64,000 nt of DNA from Candidatus Heimdallarchaeota archaeon (GTDB taxonomy: Archaea; Asgardarchaeota; Heimdallarchaeia; Heimdallarchaeales; Heimdallarchaeaceae), in NCBI GenBank assembly GCA_016840095.1, contig JAEOSZ010000066.1, positions 1 to 64,000 on the forward strand. The letters run 5' to 3'. The notes under the pieces are model-generated. The model was not told the DNA's origin and did not search any database. It saw nothing but the letters and a program-made list of their open reading frames with translations. This document shows, piece after piece, positions 12,277 to 35,476 of the stretch. The first letter of the stretch is position 1; every line of letters starts with the position of its first letter. Made by a program: the position numbers and the translations under genes.

Positions 12277-15200
12277 TCAACTGAAAATCCGTAATGTGGT
12301 TTTGCAGTAAGGGCATCTTTCGTTTTCCATTACCCATTCAACAAGATGTTTCAGATGAAAGAGATGCTCACATAATGGACATTCAATTGCATTTTCATAG
12401 ACAGGTTGAAAACAAATCATACATTGTTGTTCTTTGGTTTCAGTTAATTGTTTCCCCTTAATTGCCACTTTCTTTAAGGTTTTAGCAATTTTAGACAGAT
12501 TTTCTGCAATTATTACTGTTTCTTCAGTAACAGTTACCTTTTCCTTTTTCGCTGGCGTTATCTCACTAACGGTTGCATTTTTTGTTAAATATTGAATATA
12601 ATCTCCAAGAATGGCTTTATTAATGAGGGGGTCACCAACAATAATCAGCTTTTTCTTCGCTCTAGTTATAGCTACATTCAATCTTCTTGCATCAGTAAAA
12701 CCTCTTTTGCTCTTCATTGTAGTTTCAGTTAAAGAAAGAATGATAAGTTCTCTATCACTCCCTTGGAATCTATCAACAGTATCAACTGTAATGGTAGGGG
12801 GTAGATTTCTTCTAATCTCTGCAACTTGTCCCCTATAAGGGCAGATAATGCCGATCTGATTAGAAGTAAGTCCTAATTTAAGTAAATTAGTGATTATATC
12901 ACTTACAACCTTAGCTTCTTCAATGTTGAACTTCTTCTCATGTTCAAAAATTCCATGGACAGGAACGAAAATTAGTGGGTGTTTTGGATCATAAATTTCA
13001 GGACAACCAAACTGAGTATAATCGGTTTTATAATTTGGCAATTCCAAAAGATTCTGAAATTTCACCAAATTGTCAAAGGATTCTAGTTTATTATCATAGA
13101 ATTTATTGTTAGAGAATTCAACGAGTTTTTCATTCATTCTAAATTGATGTGTAAGTAAATGAATGGAATTGGGATTACTCTCAGCTAAACGTTCAAAGAG
13201 AGATACACTCATATTTTCCTTTTGTGCTTTAACACTTTGAACAACAGGAGGAAGCTGTTTGTGGTCACCAACTAGAATAAATCTATTCCCCTCAATTAAG
13301 GAAGAAAGAACAGTTGGTTCAGTCATTTGACTTGCTTCATCTATTATAATTGTTTGAGTTCCCAGTTTCTCAAATACGGGACTAGAAATAGTAGTTGTTG
13401 TTGCTACTATAATCGGATATTCTGCTATAATTTCTCCAACGGATTTCTCAGAATCTTGTTTCTTATAAGCATCAATAGTATAATCTCTGATTTCTTTTTG
13501 AATCGAATGAGAAGATCCAAGTCTGACAAAACTCTGAAAACCATTTTCTAGTAAGTACTTGCAAACATTATCAACAGCTCTATTTGTAAAAGCAGTAATG
13601 AGTACCTTTTCTCCTTGTTTTGCTAATTCTATTGCAGACTTTGCAATAACGTAAGTCTTTCCAGTTCCTGCAGGACCTTGTATAAGAGAATAGTTTTTAG
13701 TTCCTAGAATTTTCTCAACAGCTTCATTTTGTATCGGATTACTTGGTATAAACTTTCCTTTCACTGGTTCAGATTCTGAATCCTCTTCTTGAATGACCAA
13801 TTCTCGGAAGGCATTGCGTTTGAAAAGAAGATTGAACAGACCTCGCTGTTGTCTTCTAAAACCAACATCGATAGAATACATATCTATGTTTGATACTTCT
13901 TCTTGAATTGATCTGGTTTCGATTTCAACTGATGTATTTGAAATACTAGAAACTATACCAGTACTTACAAAACCTTGTTTGATATCTCCTTTGCTTAAAA
14001 CAACAATATCCCCCTCTCGAAGCTCACTATTATTTTTACATGAATACAACAATTTAGTAGTATTACCTTCTTTTATCTCATTTTCTAAAGATAAATCTGT
14101 GATGGCTTTCCCTTTTGCAACTCTTTGTTCTACAGATAGTTTCCACAAATCAGAAAGGTTTCTAGCTGATTCACTCTTATCGAATCTTATTAATTTTGAA
14201 AACTTATTGAAATAGTCTATGTGTGTATCAGGAAGCGCATTTTTTGTACATAATTGATCATGAGGACAAGTAGAACACCTACGTTCTTGGTTCAATCCTG
14301 CGCAAACTAAAGCGCAATAATGTTTTACAAAGCAATTTCTACACCTATTTTGTTGTGATTCAGAAAGAATAGGGGGAACGTATCCTATGTGTGTTATTCT
14401 ATGAGCAATATTCCGATGAATCATACCATATCGTAAAAGCCCCCAGTTGGGACTGGCTTCTTTTTGAACAAGAGTATTTGTTCCCACATAGAGAACGCTT
14501 CCAGTATCAAGTTGTGAATTATCTATTTGTGATTGAAGTCCATATCTGTAAAGTGTAACTTGTAAAAGGTCTGAGAAACGAATATCCTTTTCTTCTGAGA
14601 CCTTCCCAGTTTTTAACTCATAGATATTATCATCAGTGTAAAGATCGATTCGTCCTCTTATTCCAAAGAACGGTGAAAGAAACAGGATTTCAGGTAAGGA
14701 TTTTGGAGGGAGATGTTCAACAAAAGAATCTAGACTTTCTGCCATTTTTCTGACATCTTGAAAAACTGTTTCCTTTCTATAATTATAATATTCATACTGA
14801 AGAGAATAGGAATCAAGAACCTTAGACAATTCTTCAGATGGTTTGGAATTATTGGAAACTGCCAAGCTTAAAGCATCATGAACAATTGAACCTCTTATGG
14901 CTATGTAAGGAGAAGGAGTATCACCTACGATTTCATTAATATAATAACTTCTAGGACAAAAAGAAACACTGTTTGCAGCTGTTGCATTCATCAGAATATC
15001 AGGGTCTACAACTATGATAGTTTTAGAATCAGCAGAGTAGTAGTGGGATTCTTCATTAGCAACTTTATTCACATTGAAAATTTTCAATGTCGTATAAGGA
15101 GGAAGGTAATCAGCTATTTCATTCCAAGGTGACCACAGATTAAGTATGAATTGTTCTGTGTCTACATCTATAAGTACAGTGGTTAAGGGATTATCTCCAT

Positions 15201-15282
15201 CTTTTTGAGAAAGCGTTTTCAAGAATGCACAGTCTAGATTAAGCATTGTTAATTTTAAATCCAGAAAATGATAAATAAACAT
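12277..15282 (-). CDS. Dna2-like nuclease/helicase (OB fold, Cas4-type Fe-S nuclease, SF1B helicase) with C-terminal RING finger
   Basis: FCPRSYY, RGSIVH, GIRGRID..YELKTG, QVTLY, CRNCFVKHYC; GPAGTGKT, TNRAVD, IDEASQ, GDHKQLPP, QFRM, TVDRFQG, RRLNVAITRAK; C-terminal CMIC..CPLCEHLFHLKH..W..CPYC. Confidence 0.9.
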   Translation of the reverse strand: MFIYHFLDLKLTMLNLDCAFLKTLSQKDGDNPLTTVLIDVDTEQFILNLWSPWNEIADYLPPYTTLKIFNVNKVANEESHYYSADSKTIIVVDPDILMNATAANSVSFCPRSYYINEIVGDTPSPYIAIRGSIVHDALSLAVSNNSKPSEELSKVLDSYSLQYEYYNYRKETVFQDVRKMAESLDSFVEHLPPKSLPEILFLSPFFGIRGRIDLYTDDNIYELKTGKVSEEKDIRFSDLLQVTLYRYGLQSQIDNSQLDTGSVLYVGTNTLVQKEASPNWGLLRYGMIHRNIAHRITHIGYVPPILSESQQNRCRNCFVKHYCALVCAGLNQERRCSTCPHDQLCTKNALPDTHIDYFNKFSKLIRFDKSESARNLSDLWKLSVEQRVAKGKAITDLSLENEIKEGNTTKLLYSCKNNSELREGDIVVLSKGDIKQGFVSTGIVSSISNTSVEIETRSIQEEVSNIDMYSIDVGFRRQQRGLFNLLFKRNAFRELVIQEEDSESEPVKGKFIPSNPIQNEAVEKILGTKNYSLIQGPAGTGKTYVIAKSAIELAKQGEKVLITAFTNRAVDNVCKYLLENGFQSFVRLGSSHSIQKEIRDYTIDAYKKQDSEKSVGEIIAEYPIIVATTTTISSPVFEKLGTQTIIIDEASQMTEPTVLSSLIEGNRFILVGDHKQLPPVVQSVKAQKENMSVSLFERLAESNPNSIHLLTHQFRMNEKLVEFSNNKFYDNKLESFDNLVKFQNLLELPNYKTDYTQFGCPEIYDPKHPLIFVPVHGIFEHEKKFNIEEAKVVSDIITNLLKLGLTSNQIGIICPYRGQVAEIRRNLPPTITVDTVDRFQGSDRELIILSLTETTMKSKRGFTDARRLNVAITRAKKKLIIVGDPLINKAILGDYIQYLTKNATVSEITPAKKEKVTVTEETVIIAENLSKIAKTLKKVAIKGKQLTETKEQQCMICFQPVYENAIECPLCEHLFHLKHLVEWVMENERCPYCKTTLRIFS

Positions 15283-15360: not shown

Positions 15361-15534
15361 TTACTCGTAATCAATACATTCGTTTGGACATTCATCGATG
15401 CATAGTCCACAGTCAGTACATTCTTCTTTTCTTGCGACAACTGCTACATCTGCTAAATCATAAACGTTTTCAGGACAAATGTCCACGCAAGCTCCACAAG
15501 CTATACAACAATCAGCATCTACTTTTGTTGGCAT
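15361..15534 (-). CDS. 2x[4Fe-4S] ferredoxin
   Basis: CIACGACVDICP and CTDCGLCIDECP; AGGTGA RBS before ATG 15534. Confidence 0.92.
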   Translation of the reverse strand: MPTKVDADCCIACGACVDICPENVYDLADVAVVARKEECTDCGLCIDECPNECIDYE

Positions 15535-15603
15535 TTTTTTATTCACCTAGGTGTTTGAAAACCCTTTTTTACTGCTCTTTTTAAACTCTTCTCTCAAGTC
15601 ATG

Positions 15604-16206
15604 TTAATCATTCATCATATCCACATCTAATTGATCTATTATCCTATCACAAATTGGACATTTCTTACTTTTCTCCAACCATCCTAAAATCTCATTCTTA
15701 TGTACAGTATGTCCACAAGGAACTATTGTAAAAACTTCATCTGCGTCAATTATCCTTTTGTTACATATATGGCACATGGGAGTTTTCTTTCCACAACTCA
15801 TACACATTATTGGACCTTCATCATCTGGTTTTTCTACTTCAGCTTCACAAAATGGACAGAAGACTCTTCGATTCTTGACCAAATTCTGATATTTGACTGC
15901 TCTTTTATACTCTAGTAAGATCATAGGATAAATGAAGATCAACAATAGTGCTGCTCCAGGTAGAGTTGTAATTAACCAAAAGAACGCATCATATGAGTTA
16001 CTACTGAAATAACCTATTAATCCTATTAAACTTAAAATCCCTGCTATGAAAGGTAAGCTATTAAGTAATTTCTTTGTTGGTTTTGTTTTTGTTCTCAAGT
16101 ACATGCTTCCCTTTCGACAACCTTTCGAACAGTAATGTTGTCCTTTCATTTTCAGAAGCTGTTCATCATTGATTAAACTCCCACAAACCTTACATCTTAT
16201 CCCCAT
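15604..16206 (-). CDS. Membrane protein with zinc fingers and C-terminal RING-H2-like domain
   Basis: N-terminal CKVC..YCSKGC, 2 TM, CPFC..CMSC, then CHIC..PCGHTVHKNEILGW..CPIC. Confidence 0.8.
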   Translation of the reverse strand: MGIRCKVCGSLINDEQLLKMKGQHYCSKGCRKGSMYLRTKTKPTKKLLNSLPFIAGILSLIGLIGYFSSNSYDAFFWLITTLPGAALLLIFIYPMILLEYKRAVKYQNLVKNRRVFCPFCEAEVEKPDDEGPIMCMSCGKKTPMCHICNKRIIDADEVFTIVPCGHTVHKNEILGWLEKSKKCPICDRIIDQLDVDMMND

Positions 16207-16319: not shown

Positions 16320-17027
16320 ATGTTTAAGATTTCGTTCATCGATATGAACTCAAGATCTACACTTTCCATTTTTCTAGCTCTTCTTGTTTTGATTTCAATG
16401 AACAACATACCTATTCAAACTAGTCATGCAGAAACATCACCCATCATTTATTCTCGAATCAGTGCGATTTCTTGGCCTTTTACATTATTTGACTCGACTA
16501 ATCCTTCTCTTGTTAATTATTCTACATTTCAAACTGAATTTACTTTTCAACTCATAAATCCGACTAATACTAGTATTACTATTGCCAATAATTGTACGAT
16601 TCTATTTGCTCTCAATGCTTCTGCTGAACTACTTGATGGTGAAATTGCTACAATTACTGATACTAACAGCTGTCCCTATGCGATTACTTATGATTTACTT
16701 CCTGGTGTAAACGAATACACTTATAGAAAAAACATTCACTTCCAAGAAGCTAATCTTACAAGTTTTCCTCTGGGAAATTATACTCTTGCTTATGCTCTCC
16801 TCGGTGAAGGAGATTTCGAGTTCTATGCATATAAATTATATCTTAAAATAACAGAAGACCTTGTAGAGATTTCTCAAGAAGATGGAAGTTTCGAAATAAC
16901 AATAGTTAATGATAAGGAAATAGATGATTTACCTAATTTAACGGAGACTCCTATTGCTTTTATTACTATTTTATTAGGATTGATACTTGCTCCTTTAGTT
17001 GTTAAATACAGAAAAAAGAAGAAATAG
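16320..17027 (+). CDS. Secreted/cell-surface protein with C-terminal TM anchor
   Basis: Signal peptide, several NxS/T sequons, C-terminal hydrophobic helix followed by KYRKKKK. Confidence 0.7.
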   Translation: MFKISFIDMNSRSTLSIFLALLVLISMNNIPIQTSHAETSPIIYSRISAISWPFTLFDSTNPSLVNYSTFQTEFTFQLINPTNTSITIANNCTILFALNASAELLDGEIATITDTNSCPYAITYDLLPGVNEYTYRKNIHFQEANLTSFPLGNYTLAYALLGEGDFEFYAYKLYLKITEDLVEISQEDGSFEITIVNDKEIDDLPNLTETPIAFITILLGLILAPLVVKYRKKKK

Positions 17028-17045: not shown

Positions 17046-19289
17046 TTATTTTATTTGTGTTGATCTTCCTCTAGCAAAGTCAGCAATAACGATATAAGAA
17101 ACAATTTTAGCAAACTCTGTTGAGCTACTTAAGATACCTACTACTTGATTTGTTGCTTCGTCTACAGCTCCTATAAGAACTTCCTCATTTTCTCTTTCTA
17201 CACCGATAAACTTCGGTAATTCTACTCCAGTACCCATATCTCTAAATTTTCTGACTTCAACATTTGCTTCTGATGCATATGCATCATTTATCCAATCTCG
17301 ATTTATCTGTTCATCAAGTTGAGTTACTATGGTTACTCTAACTGTTGAAGGCAATGTTTTTACTGCTTCAAGTGGTATATAGTTCGGATTAGGGGACATA
17401 ATGGTTACACTTCGTTTTGCATCTCTAATTATGCGATCCATGTGATCTTTTGTAGCTTCTAATCCTGTAATTGATGTAGTTTCTACTTTTGGTACGGGGC
17501 TTTCTCTGGTTGTTGCTTCTAATGTTCTGAAATCATTTTTCAACTTCATGGCAACTGTTAATAGATGATTTGCTGTATCAGAAAACTTACCTTCAGTCTC
17601 TGCTAAAAATCTAGTAGCTGCATCCACTTCAGTAGTGAGATTTCCGGCTAGTTGATTTTTACTTTCAACTATTTGAGCTTTTGAAGTGCTGACTATGTCA
17701 TTTGCTATGTTGCGTGTCGATTCTAATGATTTATCTAGATGATTTGACAGTTCTGAGGAAATTGTAGAAATTGAAGAGTTGATCAAATTTACTGCTTCTT
17801 GGTACTTAGAATTTATCTCTGCTTCACTTGCTTGAGAGAGTGTTTGCATTTGGTTATTTAGTTCAGACCACTTTTCCTTCAAGCTACCTGTTTGGGTTTC
17901 TAATGTTTGGTTAAAATTCTCATTCAACTGAGATATTAGACCTTTATATGATTGAATATGGTCGTTTAAGCTTTCTACTATACTTGCAGCTATATTGCCA
18001 AATTGACTTGAAAAATTTTCTTCAAAGTTAGCTAATCTTGCTCTTGCAGTCTCTTGAATTTCTTGAACCTTGCTATTATAACTTTGTAATGTTTCATTAT
18101 ATTGTACATCAAGTTTCTGAGCAAACATATCCTTTTCACTTGAGAGATTATTTCGATGTGTTTGTTCGCTATTCTGGAGATCAGCATACTTGAGATTCAT
18201 ATCCTCTTTTATCTGTGACATAGCATTTGACATAGTAACATTCTTTTGTTGAATAAGTTCATCAGATAATGTCTGCTTAATCTCAGTAACCTTTTCATTC
18301 AAAGCACTTACAGCTTCTTGAACTTGAAGAGATAATTCTTCCACTTTTCTGTTTAAAAGCATTTCAAGAGAAGTATTTAACTCGTTTAAAGAACCAGAAA
18401 CTGTTTCGGATATTCTATCTATTGTTTCTCCTGTGGCTCTAACGGTTTCAGTTGAGAAGTTAATATTCTTGTCAGCTTGACTTTTAGTAAATGCTCTTAC
18501 ATCGATTTTAGTTAAATCAATCTTCTCTTCCAGTAGTTGAGGTACTTCCCCAAGGTGAGAGGAATAATTTTCTCCTAACAATTCTAATTTAGGTTTAAGA
18601 GTTTGTGAAATTTCTTCGATTGCAGATAATTTTTCAGTTACATTCTGATTTACTTGGTTACTCAATGTTGAAGCAGTTTCAGAATTCTTCTTAGATAGAT
18701 TTTCTACAGTTAAATCAATAGATGACTGAGCATTAGATATACTATCTGTGTTATTCTGAAGTGATTCTTGCAGGAAATTTGTCAAACTTTGTTTTTGTTC
18801 TCTTTGAAGGTTAGAAACTTTACTTTTAATATCAGCAGTTTTTGATGTCAGATATTCCTTCTTCTGACTAACTGAAGTTTCCAATTCTGATGATGAGCTA
18901 GCTAATTTTTGATCTAGCTCAGTTTCTTTTCTCGAAACTGATTCTTCTAACTGTGTTACTAGATTTGCTCTTAGCTCATTGAACTCAGTTTTCTTGCTTT
19001 CCATGAATGATGATGTATTTTCAAGATTATTTTTTACATTTGTACTTATTTGATCACTACCTTCAGCAAGATATTCTAATGGTATTCTAACAAAGAATTT
19101 CTCCAAATAGCCTTCAGATATGCCCACAGCTCCCTTCTTCTGCAAAGCATTAAGAGCTACCTTTACCTTCGAAAAATGAAGATCTCCAAATTGTGCAATT
19201 TCAAAGGCTGTTAATTGTCCCGAACCTAATAATAGAGAATAGACTTGTTTTTCTTCTGGTGTTAGTTCTAATCTTTCTATAAAAGACAT
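17046..19289 (-). CDS. TrmB-type wHTH protein with long helical/coiled-coil insert and C-terminal TrmB/PLD-like domain
   Basis: LTPEEKQVYSLLL..GQLTAFEIA..KVALNALQKKG; ~530 aa S/Q/E/N/L-rich heptad region; GLEATKDHM..IIRDAKRSVTIMSP. Confidence 0.75.
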   Translation of the reverse strand: MSFIERLELTPEEKQVYSLLLGSGQLTAFEIAQFGDLHFSKVKVALNALQKKGAVGISEGYLEKFFVRIPLEYLAEGSDQISTNVKNNLENTSSFMESKKTEFNELRANLVTQLEESVSRKETELDQKLASSSSELETSVSQKKEYLTSKTADIKSKVSNLQREQKQSLTNFLQESLQNNTDSISNAQSSIDLTVENLSKKNSETASTLSNQVNQNVTEKLSAIEEISQTLKPKLELLGENYSSHLGEVPQLLEEKIDLTKIDVRAFTKSQADKNINFSTETVRATGETIDRISETVSGSLNELNTSLEMLLNRKVEELSLQVQEAVSALNEKVTEIKQTLSDELIQQKNVTMSNAMSQIKEDMNLKYADLQNSEQTHRNNLSSEKDMFAQKLDVQYNETLQSYNSKVQEIQETARARLANFEENFSSQFGNIAASIVESLNDHIQSYKGLISQLNENFNQTLETQTGSLKEKWSELNNQMQTLSQASEAEINSKYQEAVNLINSSISTISSELSNHLDKSLESTRNIANDIVSTSKAQIVESKNQLAGNLTTEVDAATRFLAETEGKFSDTANHLLTVAMKLKNDFRTLEATTRESPVPKVETTSITGLEATKDHMDRIIRDAKRSVTIMSPNPNYIPLEAVKTLPSTVRVTIVTQLDEQINRDWINDAYASEANVEVRKFRDMGTGVELPKFIGVERENEEVLIGAVDEATNQVVGILSSSTEFAKIVSYIVIADFARGRSTQIK

Positions 19290-20347: not shown

Positions 20348-21952
20348 CTACTTTCCAAGAAATGTTTCCAGTGAAGTTTGAGATCCGTTTTTGTCTTTTT
20401 TACCAGTTGGTTTTTTCTCTACTGCTTTTTCTGCTTTAGAATCATCTTTTGGTTTAGGTTTTGTTTCCTCTTTCTCTTTTGTTGTTTTTTCTTCTATCGG
20501 ACTAGTTTTTTCAGGTTCATCTTTGTTTTCCTTTACAGACTCTTCAGTTTCGGGTTTCTTCTTAGGTTTTTGTGGTGTTTTTTTAGTCTGTTTTTTCTGT
20601 TTTTGTGTATAGAAAATCAAACTCTGATTCATTGTTTTTGCTTTATCTATCCAACTTTCAGCCATTTGTAAATAGGCTTCTTCTGAGTACTCCAGAATTT
20701 TTTTTGTCAATTTGTTTGATTTATCTGTTAGAAAAAGAATATCTGATTCATCATACTGAAACCATGCACTCAAGCCTGCAGCCATCTTTGGATCAGTGTT
20801 AAAAATTATTCTAATGAATGGGAAATAGTCTGTTTGAAAAACCTTTTGTGAACAATGTAAGTGTTTTGTGCTTTTAATTGCAATGTTTTTCAAATTAGCA
20901 TTTTTAGTTCTTAACCTCGCCATCAATGACCAATAACTTGGAAAACCATATTTAGTATATTTGAAAGCAGATGTTTTAACTAATCCAACTGAGGATATGA
21001 AGGTAAAAAAGTATTTGAGGAATTTCCAGTCTTGTTTAATGTAACATTGTTGCAAATACCTATCTGCTTCAGCAATAAGTTGGTAAATACTGAATAATTC
21101 TTCAGATGAATTTGCTTGTTTATACGCATGTTCATAAACATAAGTAAGTAATTCTCGATAATCAACATCAACTCCATCTAAAGCTCTTTTAGCTGAAGTA
21201 AAATCTTTGGCACTAAAAATATTAGTCAATGCAGAATCTAAACTGTGTTTTTGATTTCTTGGATCAAATACTAATTCTATATCTTTTAGACCAAAGGAAA
21301 CGCCCTCTAAATCATTAATAGCTGATCTTGCGTCACCACCACTATTCTTAGTGATAGCAATCAGAGTTGCTTCTTTGACATCCAATTTTTCTTTTTTGAC
21401 AATCTTCTTAAGAAGAGTAAGAATTTCTTCATCCTTGAGACTCTTGAATTCTATTACTAACATATTTTTCTTTGCAGATTTCAAGGATGAAGCACTAGGA
21501 TCATTCGCTGTGCAAATTATGGGGGTTCTTGTAGCTATAACGGCTCTAGCTAAAGCACTTCCACCACCCCTATCTTCATTACCAAAAAGACCATCTGCTT
21601 CATCAACTAAAATTAATTTCTTAACTCTTGCACCTTGAAGAACGGTACCTTCTGTTGAAGCCCTTCCAACCAATAACTCAACTGCTTTTTTATTTCTTTT
21701 ATCACTAGCATTTACTTCTACAAACTCAAAGCCGTATTTCTTTATTAGATAATGGACAACACTAGTTTTTCCTACTCCTGCAGGTCCTGCTAGAAGAGCT
21801 ACTTTTTTCCTCTGTTGGTTCCAGCTTTTTAACCAGTTTTCTAACTTCTGAACTGCCTCTTTGTTACCAACAAAATCTTCCAATTTCTCAGGACGATACT
21901 TTTCAACCCAGGGGATAACTTGGTTACTATCTATACTAGCCATAAAGGTCAT
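20348..21952 (-). CDS. rfcL: Replication factor C large subunit
   Basis: PWVEKYRP, GPAGVGKT, EVNASD, DEAD, GDARSAINDL; K/E-rich tail ending in PIP box QTSLETFL. Confidence 0.95.
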   Translation of the reverse strand: MTFMASIDSNQVIPWVEKYRPEKLEDFVGNKEAVQKLENWLKSWNQQRKKVALLAGPAGVGKTSVVHYLIKKYGFEFVEVNASDKRNKKAVELLVGRASTEGTVLQGARVKKLILVDEADGLFGNEDRGGGSALARAVIATRTPIICTANDPSASSLKSAKKNMLVIEFKSLKDEEILTLLKKIVKKEKLDVKEATLIAITKNSGGDARSAINDLEGVSFGLKDIELVFDPRNQKHSLDSALTNIFSAKDFTSAKRALDGVDVDYRELLTYVYEHAYKQANSSEELFSIYQLIAEADRYLQQCYIKQDWKFLKYFFTFISSVGLVKTSAFKYTKYGFPSYWSLMARLRTKNANLKNIAIKSTKHLHCSQKVFQTDYFPFIRIIFNTDPKMAAGLSAWFQYDESDILFLTDKSNKLTKKILEYSEEAYLQMAESWIDKAKTMNQSLIFYTQKQKKQTKKTPQKPKKKPETEESVKENKDEPEKTSPIEEKTTKEKEETKPKPKDDSKAEKAVEKKPTGKKDKNGSQTSLETFLGK

Positions 21953-34810: not shown

Positions 34811-35476
34811 CTATATTTTAGTCTCTAAGAGATACAATCTCTTCTTCAAATTATAGAACCTTTTAGCAAATTCTAAACTAGAGATATCATAGTCCTCAAA
34901 TTGTTGTTCTATAGCAAAAAGCTCACTTTCAACATTCAAAATTTCATCTTCAAGATGCTTTTGTTTTTCTTGTTGTAAAGTTCTATTTGTCAACTGTTGG
35001 GTTTGTTTGTTCTTGATTTCATTCAAGATTTTTTTCTTGTCTTCAAGAATTATAGCCAACTGCTCTTTTTGAGAGATTATAGGAGTAAGTTGTTCTTGAG
35101 AATCAACTGTTTCTATCTCTTTTTCTACACATCTTGCTGGAACTTTTTGGAATAGTCTTAATAATTCTACAATTACTTGGAATAAATGATAACTGTCTCT
35201 CCAACGAGCTAGCATTCTCATTTCGAGAACACCATCAGGTGTCATATTTGGATGGGTGATTGGACTGAGAATCTGAACAACAGGAGGAAATTCAGGAAAA
35301 TTCTCTGGTAATTTTATTTCGACATCAACGAATATTTCTCCTTCATTTGTAATTACTGGAACAAATCCCTTCCAAGTTGTTAAATCACCATCTTTCGGCT
35401 CGAAAGCATAAGCTCTCTCCATTACAAGACTATATTCTTTTGCTAGGACACTATCTGGAACAGGCATAATATACAC
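34811..35476 (-). CDS. UEV domain, coiled coil and steadiness-box protein (Vps23/TSG101-Vps37-like, ESCRT-I)
   Basis: E2 fold WKG..IKLPENFPEFPP...ITHPNM..DGVL with Glu at the catalytic Cys position; coiled coil; FE..DI...EF.KRF..LK tail. Confidence 0.8.
   Translation of the reverse strand: MYIMPVPDSVLAKEYSLVMERAYAFEPKDGDLTTWKGFVPVITNEGEIFVDVEIKLPENFPEFPPVVQILSPITHPNMTPDGVLEMRMLARWRDSYHLFQVIVELLRLFQKVPARCVEKEIETVDSQEQLTPIISQKEQLAIILEDKKKILNEIKNKQTQQLTNRTLQQEKQKHLEDEILNVESELFAIEQQFEDYDISSLEFAKRFYNLKKRLYLLETKI

Follow-up and report, generated by a model that had tools for sequence, protein, structure and literature searches.

A question raised by a gene of a heimdallarchaeal genome is whether genome maintenance and ubiquitin tagging were already linked before eukaryotes; namely, whether a DNA-processing enzyme of these archaea carries a ubiquitin ligase module of its own. 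Regulation of replication and repair by ubiquitin counts as a hallmark of eukaryotes, and recent phylogenomics place the class Heimdallarchaeia nearest to eukaryotes. We know of no substrates or physiological roles for Asgard ubiquitin systems. The window analysed here is a stretch of 64,000 nucleotides from Candidatus Heimdallarchaeota archaeon (an Asgard archaeon of the family Heimdallarchaeaceae; assembly GCA_016840095.1, contig JAEOSZ010000066.1, positions 1 to 64,000), part of a 3.44-Mb metagenome-assembled genome (MAG; 165 contigs, 89% complete, 7.8% contamination). At positions 12277–15282, on the minus strand, it holds one uninterrupted open reading frame (ORF) of 1,001 codons. The encoded protein, which we call Dna2-RING, is a Dna2 nuclease–helicase that ends in a finger related by sequence to the RING-H2 domains of ubiquitin ligases (E3s). 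Its conserved features suggest that genome maintenance and ubiquitin tagging may indeed have been linked before eukaryotes. A search of the literature found no description of a Dna2–RING fusion.

Residue numbers count from the start of the 1,001-codon ORF (window position 15282, minus strand). The gene and its parts are as follows.

12277–15246, minus strand: Dna2-RING gene, probable true extent (989 amino acids from M13; the coordinates include the stop codon, and the ORF as printed extends to 15282)
14998–15246, minus strand: N-terminal OB-like beta domain (residues 13–95; model strands 10–27, 33–40, 43–50, 64–75, 80–84 and 89–92)
14233–14997, minus strand: PD-(D/E)XK nuclease of the Cas4/RecB type with a four-Cys Fe–S staple (residues 96–350; Pfam PDDEXK_1 at 100–345)
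14248–14304, minus strand: second Cys cluster, C327-x8-C336-x2-C339-x5-C345 (called from sequence; model confidence, given as the predicted local distance difference test (pLDDT), 59–61)
13768–14232, minus strand: helical stalk and beta-barrel leading from nuclease to helicase (residues 351–505; long helix 352–376, strands 398–468; within the superposition on 5EAN)
12613–13767, minus strand: SF1B helicase of the Upf1/Dna2 type, domains 1A and 2A (residues 506–890; AAA_11/AAA_12)
12436–12612, minus strand: variable linker (residues 891–949; pLDDT below 50 at 939–949)
12280–12435, minus strand: C-terminal RING-H2-derived finger (residues 950–1001; ligands C954, C957, C968, C971, H976, H979, C990 and C993)

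The enzyme is a Dna2

Domains were called with Pfam, sequence relatives were sought with phmmer against the PDB and folds were compared using AlphaFold2 models and Foldseek. Conservation was read from an alignment of 39 relatives of the full-length protein (A1) and an alignment of 32 tails (A2), 27 of them from Heimdallarchaeaceae and 5 from the clade of genus g14, for which a single source record gives the name Hodarchaeales.

The Dna2 identity is secure. Pfam Dna2 (PF08696) matches residues 48–191 (E = 1 × 10−12; 48.5 bits against a cut-off of 22.4), and AAA_11 and AAA_12, of the SF1B, Upf1-like kind, match residues 515–884 (E = 9 × 10−36 and 2 × 10−46). Nuclease residues D213, E222, K224, Q241 and Y245 and the Fe–S staple (C109, C314, C317 and C323) are invariant among the 39 relatives and the same in the aligned eukaryotic Dna2 rows; in the helicase, Walker A (G536–T543), Walker B (D648–E649), Q676 and R874 are likewise invariant and identical in those rows. 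The best PDB match by sequence is mouse DNA2 (residues 515–887, E = 4 × 10−63). A full-length AlphaFold2 model built on A1 (pLDDT 85, predicted template-modelling (TM) score 0.86) has mouse Dna2 (5EAN_A) as its top Foldseek match, which extends over nearly the whole length (E = 3.2 × 10−56; TM-score 0.74 for the query and 0.71 for the target; 1,023 columns), with IGHMBP2, UPF1 and Sen1 far behind as helicase-only matches. The Dna2-like architecture proposed by the first-pass annotation, with an OB-like N terminus, a Cas4-type nuclease with a 1+3 Cys Fe–S staple and an SF1B helicase, is borne out by the Pfam matches, the invariant residues and the fold; the near-whole-length match to mouse Dna2 shows that the OB-like call was correct. 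The conserved motifs predict that the Dna2 body has both nuclease and helicase activity.

Dna2-RING and eukaryotic Dna2 (mouse; 5EAN, 5EAW and 5EAX) share the domain order OB, nuclease with a C-x(n)-C-x2-C-x5-C staple, stalk/barrel and SF1B 1A/2A, as well as their catalytic residues and, as far as the model can tell, their whole-length fold, at approximately 24–27% sequence identity. The archaeal protein differs in its length (989 amino acids, compared with 1,100–1,650 for the named eukaryotic Dna2 proteins) and is the only one of the two with the second Cys cluster. Precomputed Pfam domains of five named eukaryotic Dna2 proteins include no RING family.

A RING-H2-derived tail

Ten positions are invariant in the 32 tails (C954, C957, C968, P969, C971, H976, H979, W983, C990 and C993), and the consensus reads C-x2-C-x10/11-C-P-x-C-x4-H-x2-H-x3-W-x6-C-x2-C. 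In all of these tails, eight predicted zinc ligands fall in the spacing of a cross-brace, in a C4H2C2 rather than a C3H2C3 arrangement. The finger had been annotated at first pass as a RING-like CxxC..CxxCxHxxHxxH..W..CPxC; the finger itself, its Trp and the CPxC are real, whereas the His of the proposed CxH (H973, the canonical ligand 4) occurs in just 15 of the 27 family members and is Gln in the g14 clade. Apparently, C968, the upstream Cys of the CPxC knuckle, substitutes for His-4, and a His replaces Cys-6.

The relationship to ubiquitin ligases is seen in both sequence and predicted fold. The family tail profile, searched against the PDB, matched only RING-H2 E3s: HRD1 (E = 6.7 × 10−8) and Arkadia (E = 1 × 10−7), followed by RNF165, gp78, RNF24, RNF126, RLIM, RNF38 and EL5, and more weakly Listerin (E = 4 × 10−4). 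As a single sequence, the tail alone matched the Arkadia RING (E = 1.3 × 10−5), and PF13639 appears in the precomputed annotation of several Dna2-RING orthologues. All of the top 50 Foldseek matches of the predicted tail model (pLDDT 79–89 across the finger) are RING or U-box domains (target TM-score up to 0.75), with root-mean-square deviations (rmsd) of 1.6 Å to HRD1 and 1.5 Å to RNF165. The RING fold, on which the original proposal of ligase activity depended, is thus indicated alike by the predicted model, the Foldseek comparison and the profile. Judged by its sequence, the tail shares ancestry with RING-H2 E3 domains and is kept by purifying selection: mean pairwise identity within the family is 0.61 for the RING, 0.61–0.66 for the enzymatic domains and 0.40 for the linker.

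Four positions (956, 983, 991 and 994) are taken here to be those that contact the ubiquitin-charged E2 (E2~Ub), an assignment made from the structures of c-Cbl, RNF4 and RNF165. At 956, the hydrophobic position that follows C1, 32 of 32 tails have Ile, Val or Leu, and at 983, in the central helix, 32 of 32 have Trp. The Pro after C7 (991) and the linchpin after C8 (994; Lys or Arg) are kept in 27 of 27 Heimdallarchaeaceae, so that the full set of E2/ubiquitin-contact residues is present throughout that family; in the g14 clade, these two positions are Val and Gln in 5 of 5. In Heimdallarchaeaceae, as far as the sequences can tell, this selection extends to the face with which eukaryotic RINGs bind E2~Ub. 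A predicted complex of the RING tail (A2 residues 45–102) with P0122, the most canonical E2 of the genome (alignment A3), had a median score of 0.31, against a mark of 0.32 and controls of 0.00, and we count it neither for nor against binding.

Compared with the RING-H2 E3s (HRD1/synoviolin, Arkadia/RNF111, RNF165, gp78/AMFR, RNF38 and EL5), the tail has the same cross-brace spacing, hydrophobic residue after C1, helix Trp, CPxC knuckle and following Lys or Arg, with profile E values of 7 × 10−8 to 1 × 10−5 and predicted folds that superpose at an rmsd of 1.5–1.9 Å over 46–49 residues. It differs from them in its C4H2C2 ligands and in being attached to a nuclease–helicase.

The finger is not confined to Dna2. 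The genome encodes at least five more proteins (ORFs of 198–539 amino acids; L002–L006, on contigs C95, C4, C143, C77 and C163) that have a C-x2-C...H-x2-H-x3-W-x6-CPxC finger, which lies in the C-terminal part of all five. The knuckle is C-x2-C in four of the five (CPxC in three and CNSC in one), and L004 has the canonical C-x-H. Because these five further proteins share the variant, for which the lineage pattern is C-x2-C...CPxC-x4-H-x2-H-x3-W-x6-CPxC[K/R], the Dna2 tail belongs to a lineage-specific RING expansion. A search of 1.84 billion representative proteins with the tail profile returned 7,441 matches at E ≤ 0.001, and only 3–4 of the clusters at 50% identity among them have the Dna2-RING architecture (P0017, P0239 and P0273, and the helicase–RING fragment P0319); the fusion is rare. 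In some proteins of the library, P0192 among them, this type of RING is repeated many times in tandem; one example, of 745 amino acids, has eight matched stretches.

Distribution and phylogeny

We searched representative genomes for the full-length protein with its tail. It is present in 30 of 30 genomes of Heimdallarchaeaceae (five genera, single-contig genomes included), in the 1 genome of family f2, in 10 of 12 of family f3 and in 11 of 22 of genus g14, and in 0 of 3 of family f4. Families f6 and f7 have longer PD-(D/E)XK–helicase proteins without a RING. The fusion was not found in the sampled Asgard genomes outside the class, in which matches at E ≤ 1 × 10−30 were helicases of 640–820 amino acids only. 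The gene is single-copy, and the protein is 60–90% identical within the genus, 53–60% identical to those of the other genera of the family and approximately 35% identical to those of other families.

A quick maximum-likelihood tree (unrooted; 57 rows and 891 columns, with the RING columns dropped by occupancy) places all RING-bearing proteins in one clade (Shimodaira–Hasegawa-like approximate likelihood ratio test (SH-aLRT) 96), which implies that the RING was acquired once. A split (92, unstarred) separates two bacterial groups from a set made up of this clade, the eukaryotic Dna2 clade (SH-aLRT 100), a group with a NERD domain and the f6 and f7 proteins, and the order within that set is a polytomy. 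An apparent relationship of eukaryotic Dna2 to some Asgard homologues is reported by Feng et al. 2025 (PMC12680538, Extended Data Fig. 5b); the text of that paper does not mention RING or ubiquitin. On the opposite side of our split are RING-less bacterial Dna2-like proteins of 913–936 amino acids (Sericytochromatia and related metagenome proteins). They resemble Dna2-RING at approximately 30–32% identity over 83–86% of the length and have both Cys clusters, and differ from it in having neither linker nor RING.

What the fusion may do

On balance, we think it somewhat more likely than not that Dna2-RING is a heimdallarchaeial Dna2 orthologue to which a RING-H2-derived tail was added once, and that this tail recruits E2~Ub to processed DNA. 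The Dna2 part would be a single-polypeptide endonuclease for single-stranded DNA (ssDNA) and 5′ flaps (PD-(D/E)XK, Fe–S) joined to a 5′–3′ SF1B translocase or helicase. The finger would have been added in the common ancestor of the carriers (families f1–f3 of the order and the g14 clade), tethered by a flexible linker of approximately 60 residues. While the Dna2 body engaged ssDNA ends or flaps in replication or repair, the tethered RING could recruit ubiquitin-charged E2 from the E1–E2–ubiquitin system of the cell; ubiquitin would then pass to Dna2 itself or to proteins present at the DNA structure. The most economical reading appears to be a nuclease–helicase that delivers E2~Ub to the DNA structures on which it acts. 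The homology of the tail and its conserved E2-contact positions suggest that Dna2-RING may have an E3 activity of its own, as the first-pass annotation had proposed; zinc binding, E2 binding, ligase activity and substrates are predicted attributes of the tail.

Several observations weigh against this reading. The zinc site differs from that of characterised RING-H2 E3s, because His-4 is not conserved and ligand 6 is His, not Cys. The match to Pfam zf-RING_2 (residues 952–994) scores 25.8 bits, below the gathering cut-off of 27.3. The g14 clade replaces both the Pro and the linchpin Lys or Arg in 5 of 5 sequences, and in the sole family-f2 sequence the helix is shortened and lacks the Trp; given these changes, support for an E2-activating function is uneven across the clade. 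Half of the g14 genomes searched, some of which are 96% complete, and all three f4 genomes gave no match to the gene, which is therefore not essential. Its kept neighbours, the solute-binding protein (SBP) of a transporter and a TrmB-like coiled-coil protein, offer no functional hint.

The unusual ligand set, the losses in g14 and f2 and the low Pfam score are also what favours the main alternative, a genuine Dna2 in which the tail is a non-catalytic zinc-finger adaptor for a partner (PCNA, RPA, RFC or another RING protein), for DNA or for an intramolecular contact. RING-like modules can be interaction domains, as is the CH domain of the related helicase Upf1. However, every significant sequence match of the tail in the PDB is a catalytic RING-H2 E3 domain; the four E2~Ub-contact positions are invariant or conservatively replaced in 27 of 27 Heimdallarchaeaceae, which would be needless for a merely structural finger; and the RING variant recurs on several more proteins of a genome with complete E1, E2 and ubiquitin sets. 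We regard the adaptor as possible but doubtful.

Rather unlikely, in our judgement, is a DNA-structure-coupled ubiquitin ligase that acts when the nuclease–helicase engages a flap, resected end or stalled fork and modifies factors of the replisome or of repair (PCNA, RPA or itself), with eukaryotic Dna2 descending from it after loss of the RING. If this were true, ubiquitin control of genome maintenance (compare Rad18/Rad5–PCNA) would be an archaeal invention that predates eukaryotes. The fusion is relevant, too, to how eukaryotic Dna2 originated and to what the second Cys cluster does.

Joining a DNA-dependent motor to a RING E3 in one polypeptide is known from eukaryotes: the genome-maintenance proteins Rad5/HLTF/SHPRH, Uls1 and Rrp1 combine the two and so link recognition of a DNA structure to ubiquitin ligation or SUMO-targeted ligation. 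Their motors are of the SF2 Snf2 family, with the RING inside the ATPase and no nuclease. Uls1 (PMC6428284) and Rrp1 (bioRxiv 10.1101/2020.05.30.125286) are two examples of the helicase/translocase–RING kind. Dna2-RING has instead an SF1B motor, a nuclease and a terminal RING; its origin is independent of the Rad5-type proteins, with homology in the RING only.

We also considered an anti-virus defence nuclease–helicase of the Mokosh (MkoA), Prometheus (ProA) or Hhe kind, in which the RING would serve ubiquitin-like conjugation in immunity. Similarity to MkoA (218 bits) and to the ProA, Hhe and PLuB helicases exists at the level of the helicase, but the scores stay below the curated cut-offs (ProA, 66 bits against 1,500; Hhe, 45 against 2,000; PLuB, 283 against 999), the PADLOC match to MkoA spans helicase residues 450–885 only, and Dna2 is the best match both by sequence and by fold over the whole length. 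The patchy occurrence in g14 (11 of 22) and the absence from f4 would suit a defence gene, as would the report of Prometheus, which has a DNA2-type nuclease domain, in Asgard archaea (PMC13700489); against them stand a single copy in 30 of 30 family genomes, stepwise divergence and conserved synteny with housekeeping genes, with no defence gene adjacent to Dna2-RING at the locus. As the PADLOC and NCBIfam matches are helicase-level only, we rejected a defence system as very improbable. A literature search on PLuB found nothing relevant.

An assembly artefact was a concern of the first-pass annotation. The probability that assembly or gene calling merely ran a helicase gene together with a small RING gene of separate origin is negligible: although the source MAG is fragmented and partly contaminated, the frame is uninterrupted over residues 1–1000 in dozens of independent assemblies, including the single-contig genomes G045, G046 and G055, protein records from several sources hold the fusion, and its retention across the family and in f2, f3 and g14 excludes such an origin.

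The second Cys cluster

The extra cluster C-x8-CxxC-x5-C, noted after the nuclease at first pass, is there as claimed, and it repeats the C-x2-C-x5-C spacing of the first (Fe–S) cluster. Heimdall families f1, f2 and f3 have it, as do six of seven RING-less bacterial relatives (Sericytochromatia and relatives). It is absent from the aligned rows of the g14 clade, Heimdall family f7, eukaryotic Dna2 and the NERD group. This distribution is not simply tree-like and therefore points to loss or transfer.

Ubiquitin genes of the source genome

The ubiquitin system that the first-pass annotation noted for Asgard archaea has its genes in the source genome. Two clusters each hold a ubiquitin-like gene adjoining an E1, with the E1s on contigs C118 and C159, and there are two canonical E2s that have the catalytic Cys. 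One of these, P0122, is on the same contig as Dna2-RING, 86 kb away; the other, P0123, is approximately 4 kb upstream of a ubiquitin/E1 pair, with a JAMM protease gene directly downstream. Within the class, 83 of 83 genomes have an E2 (PF00179); what an E3 requires therefore exists everywhere, and the co-occurrence of an E2 cannot discriminate between the readings. A conserved core DNA-processing enzyme that is physically joined to a RING-H2-type module in this class of archaea provides a concrete entry point, and joint reconstitution is possible because a single genome supplies the enzyme, the E1, E2 and ubiquitin genes and the candidate substrates.

The window also encodes a 221-amino-acid protein with an E2 fold (34811–35476, minus strand) that retains the HPN motif, lacks the catalytic Cys (UEV-like) and continues into a putative coiled coil; it resembles Asgard ESCRT-I proteins of the Vps23/TSG101 type.

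Probable gene start and putative promoter

The open frame lies exactly at 12277–15282, as had been printed, but translation probably begins at M13 (window position 15246) and not at codon 1, the first 12 codons being probably non-coding. This start is indicated by a stop at codon 5 of the N-terminal extension in three relatives, by conservation of M13 in at least 90% of A1, by a 989-amino-acid database record of the same protein that begins at M13 and by the disorder of residues 1–11 in the AlphaFold model (pLDDT below 50). The DNA of the extension ahead of M13 is still conserved in the closest relative. An TTTATTTAT element lies approximately 30 nucleotides before M13; TTTATTTAT resembles a TATA box and may be that of the Dna2-RING gene itself.

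Gene neighbourhood

Upstream of Dna2-RING, the window contains the following genes.

15361–15546, minus strand: unannotated 2×[4Fe–4S] ferredoxin ORF of approximately 57–61 amino acids with two CxxCxxCxxxCP motifs
15604–16206, minus strand: 200-amino-acid protein with N-terminal CxxC pairs, putative membrane helices and a C-terminal RING (zf-RING_2, 36 bits)
16320–17027, plus strand: 235-amino-acid protein with hydrophobic ends that resemble a signal peptide and a membrane anchor
17046–19289, minus strand: 747-amino-acid protein with an N-terminal TrmB-type helix-turn-helix and a very long coiled-coil-like region
20348–21952, minus strand: AAA+ gene like the RFC large subunit or Rad17, 5 kb from Dna2-RING

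The ferredoxin ORF is 78–114 bp upstream of Dna2-RING on the same strand, and 11 of 12 Heimdallarchaeaceae loci have it upstream of the gene. The closest relative has a 157-amino-acid ORF on the opposite strand between the two, from which we infer that the window carries a deletion of approximately 530 bp. Given this intervening ORF and the conserved TATA-like element of the Dna2 gene itself, co-transcription is not supported, and we rejected the ferredoxin as an operon partner. The genes for the 200- and 235-amino-acid proteins are an insertion, flanked by the ferredoxin and the TrmB-like gene, that most relatives lack at this place; the position of the 200-amino-acid RING protein is not conserved, and it was rejected as a partner by context. 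The TrmB-like protein is a kept neighbour throughout the genus and in the genome G045, and a further neighbour is an ABC transporter with its SBP. In G045, a closed genome of another genus, the RFC-like orthologue (L034, 5195–6460) is immediately downstream of Dna2-RING in convergent orientation.

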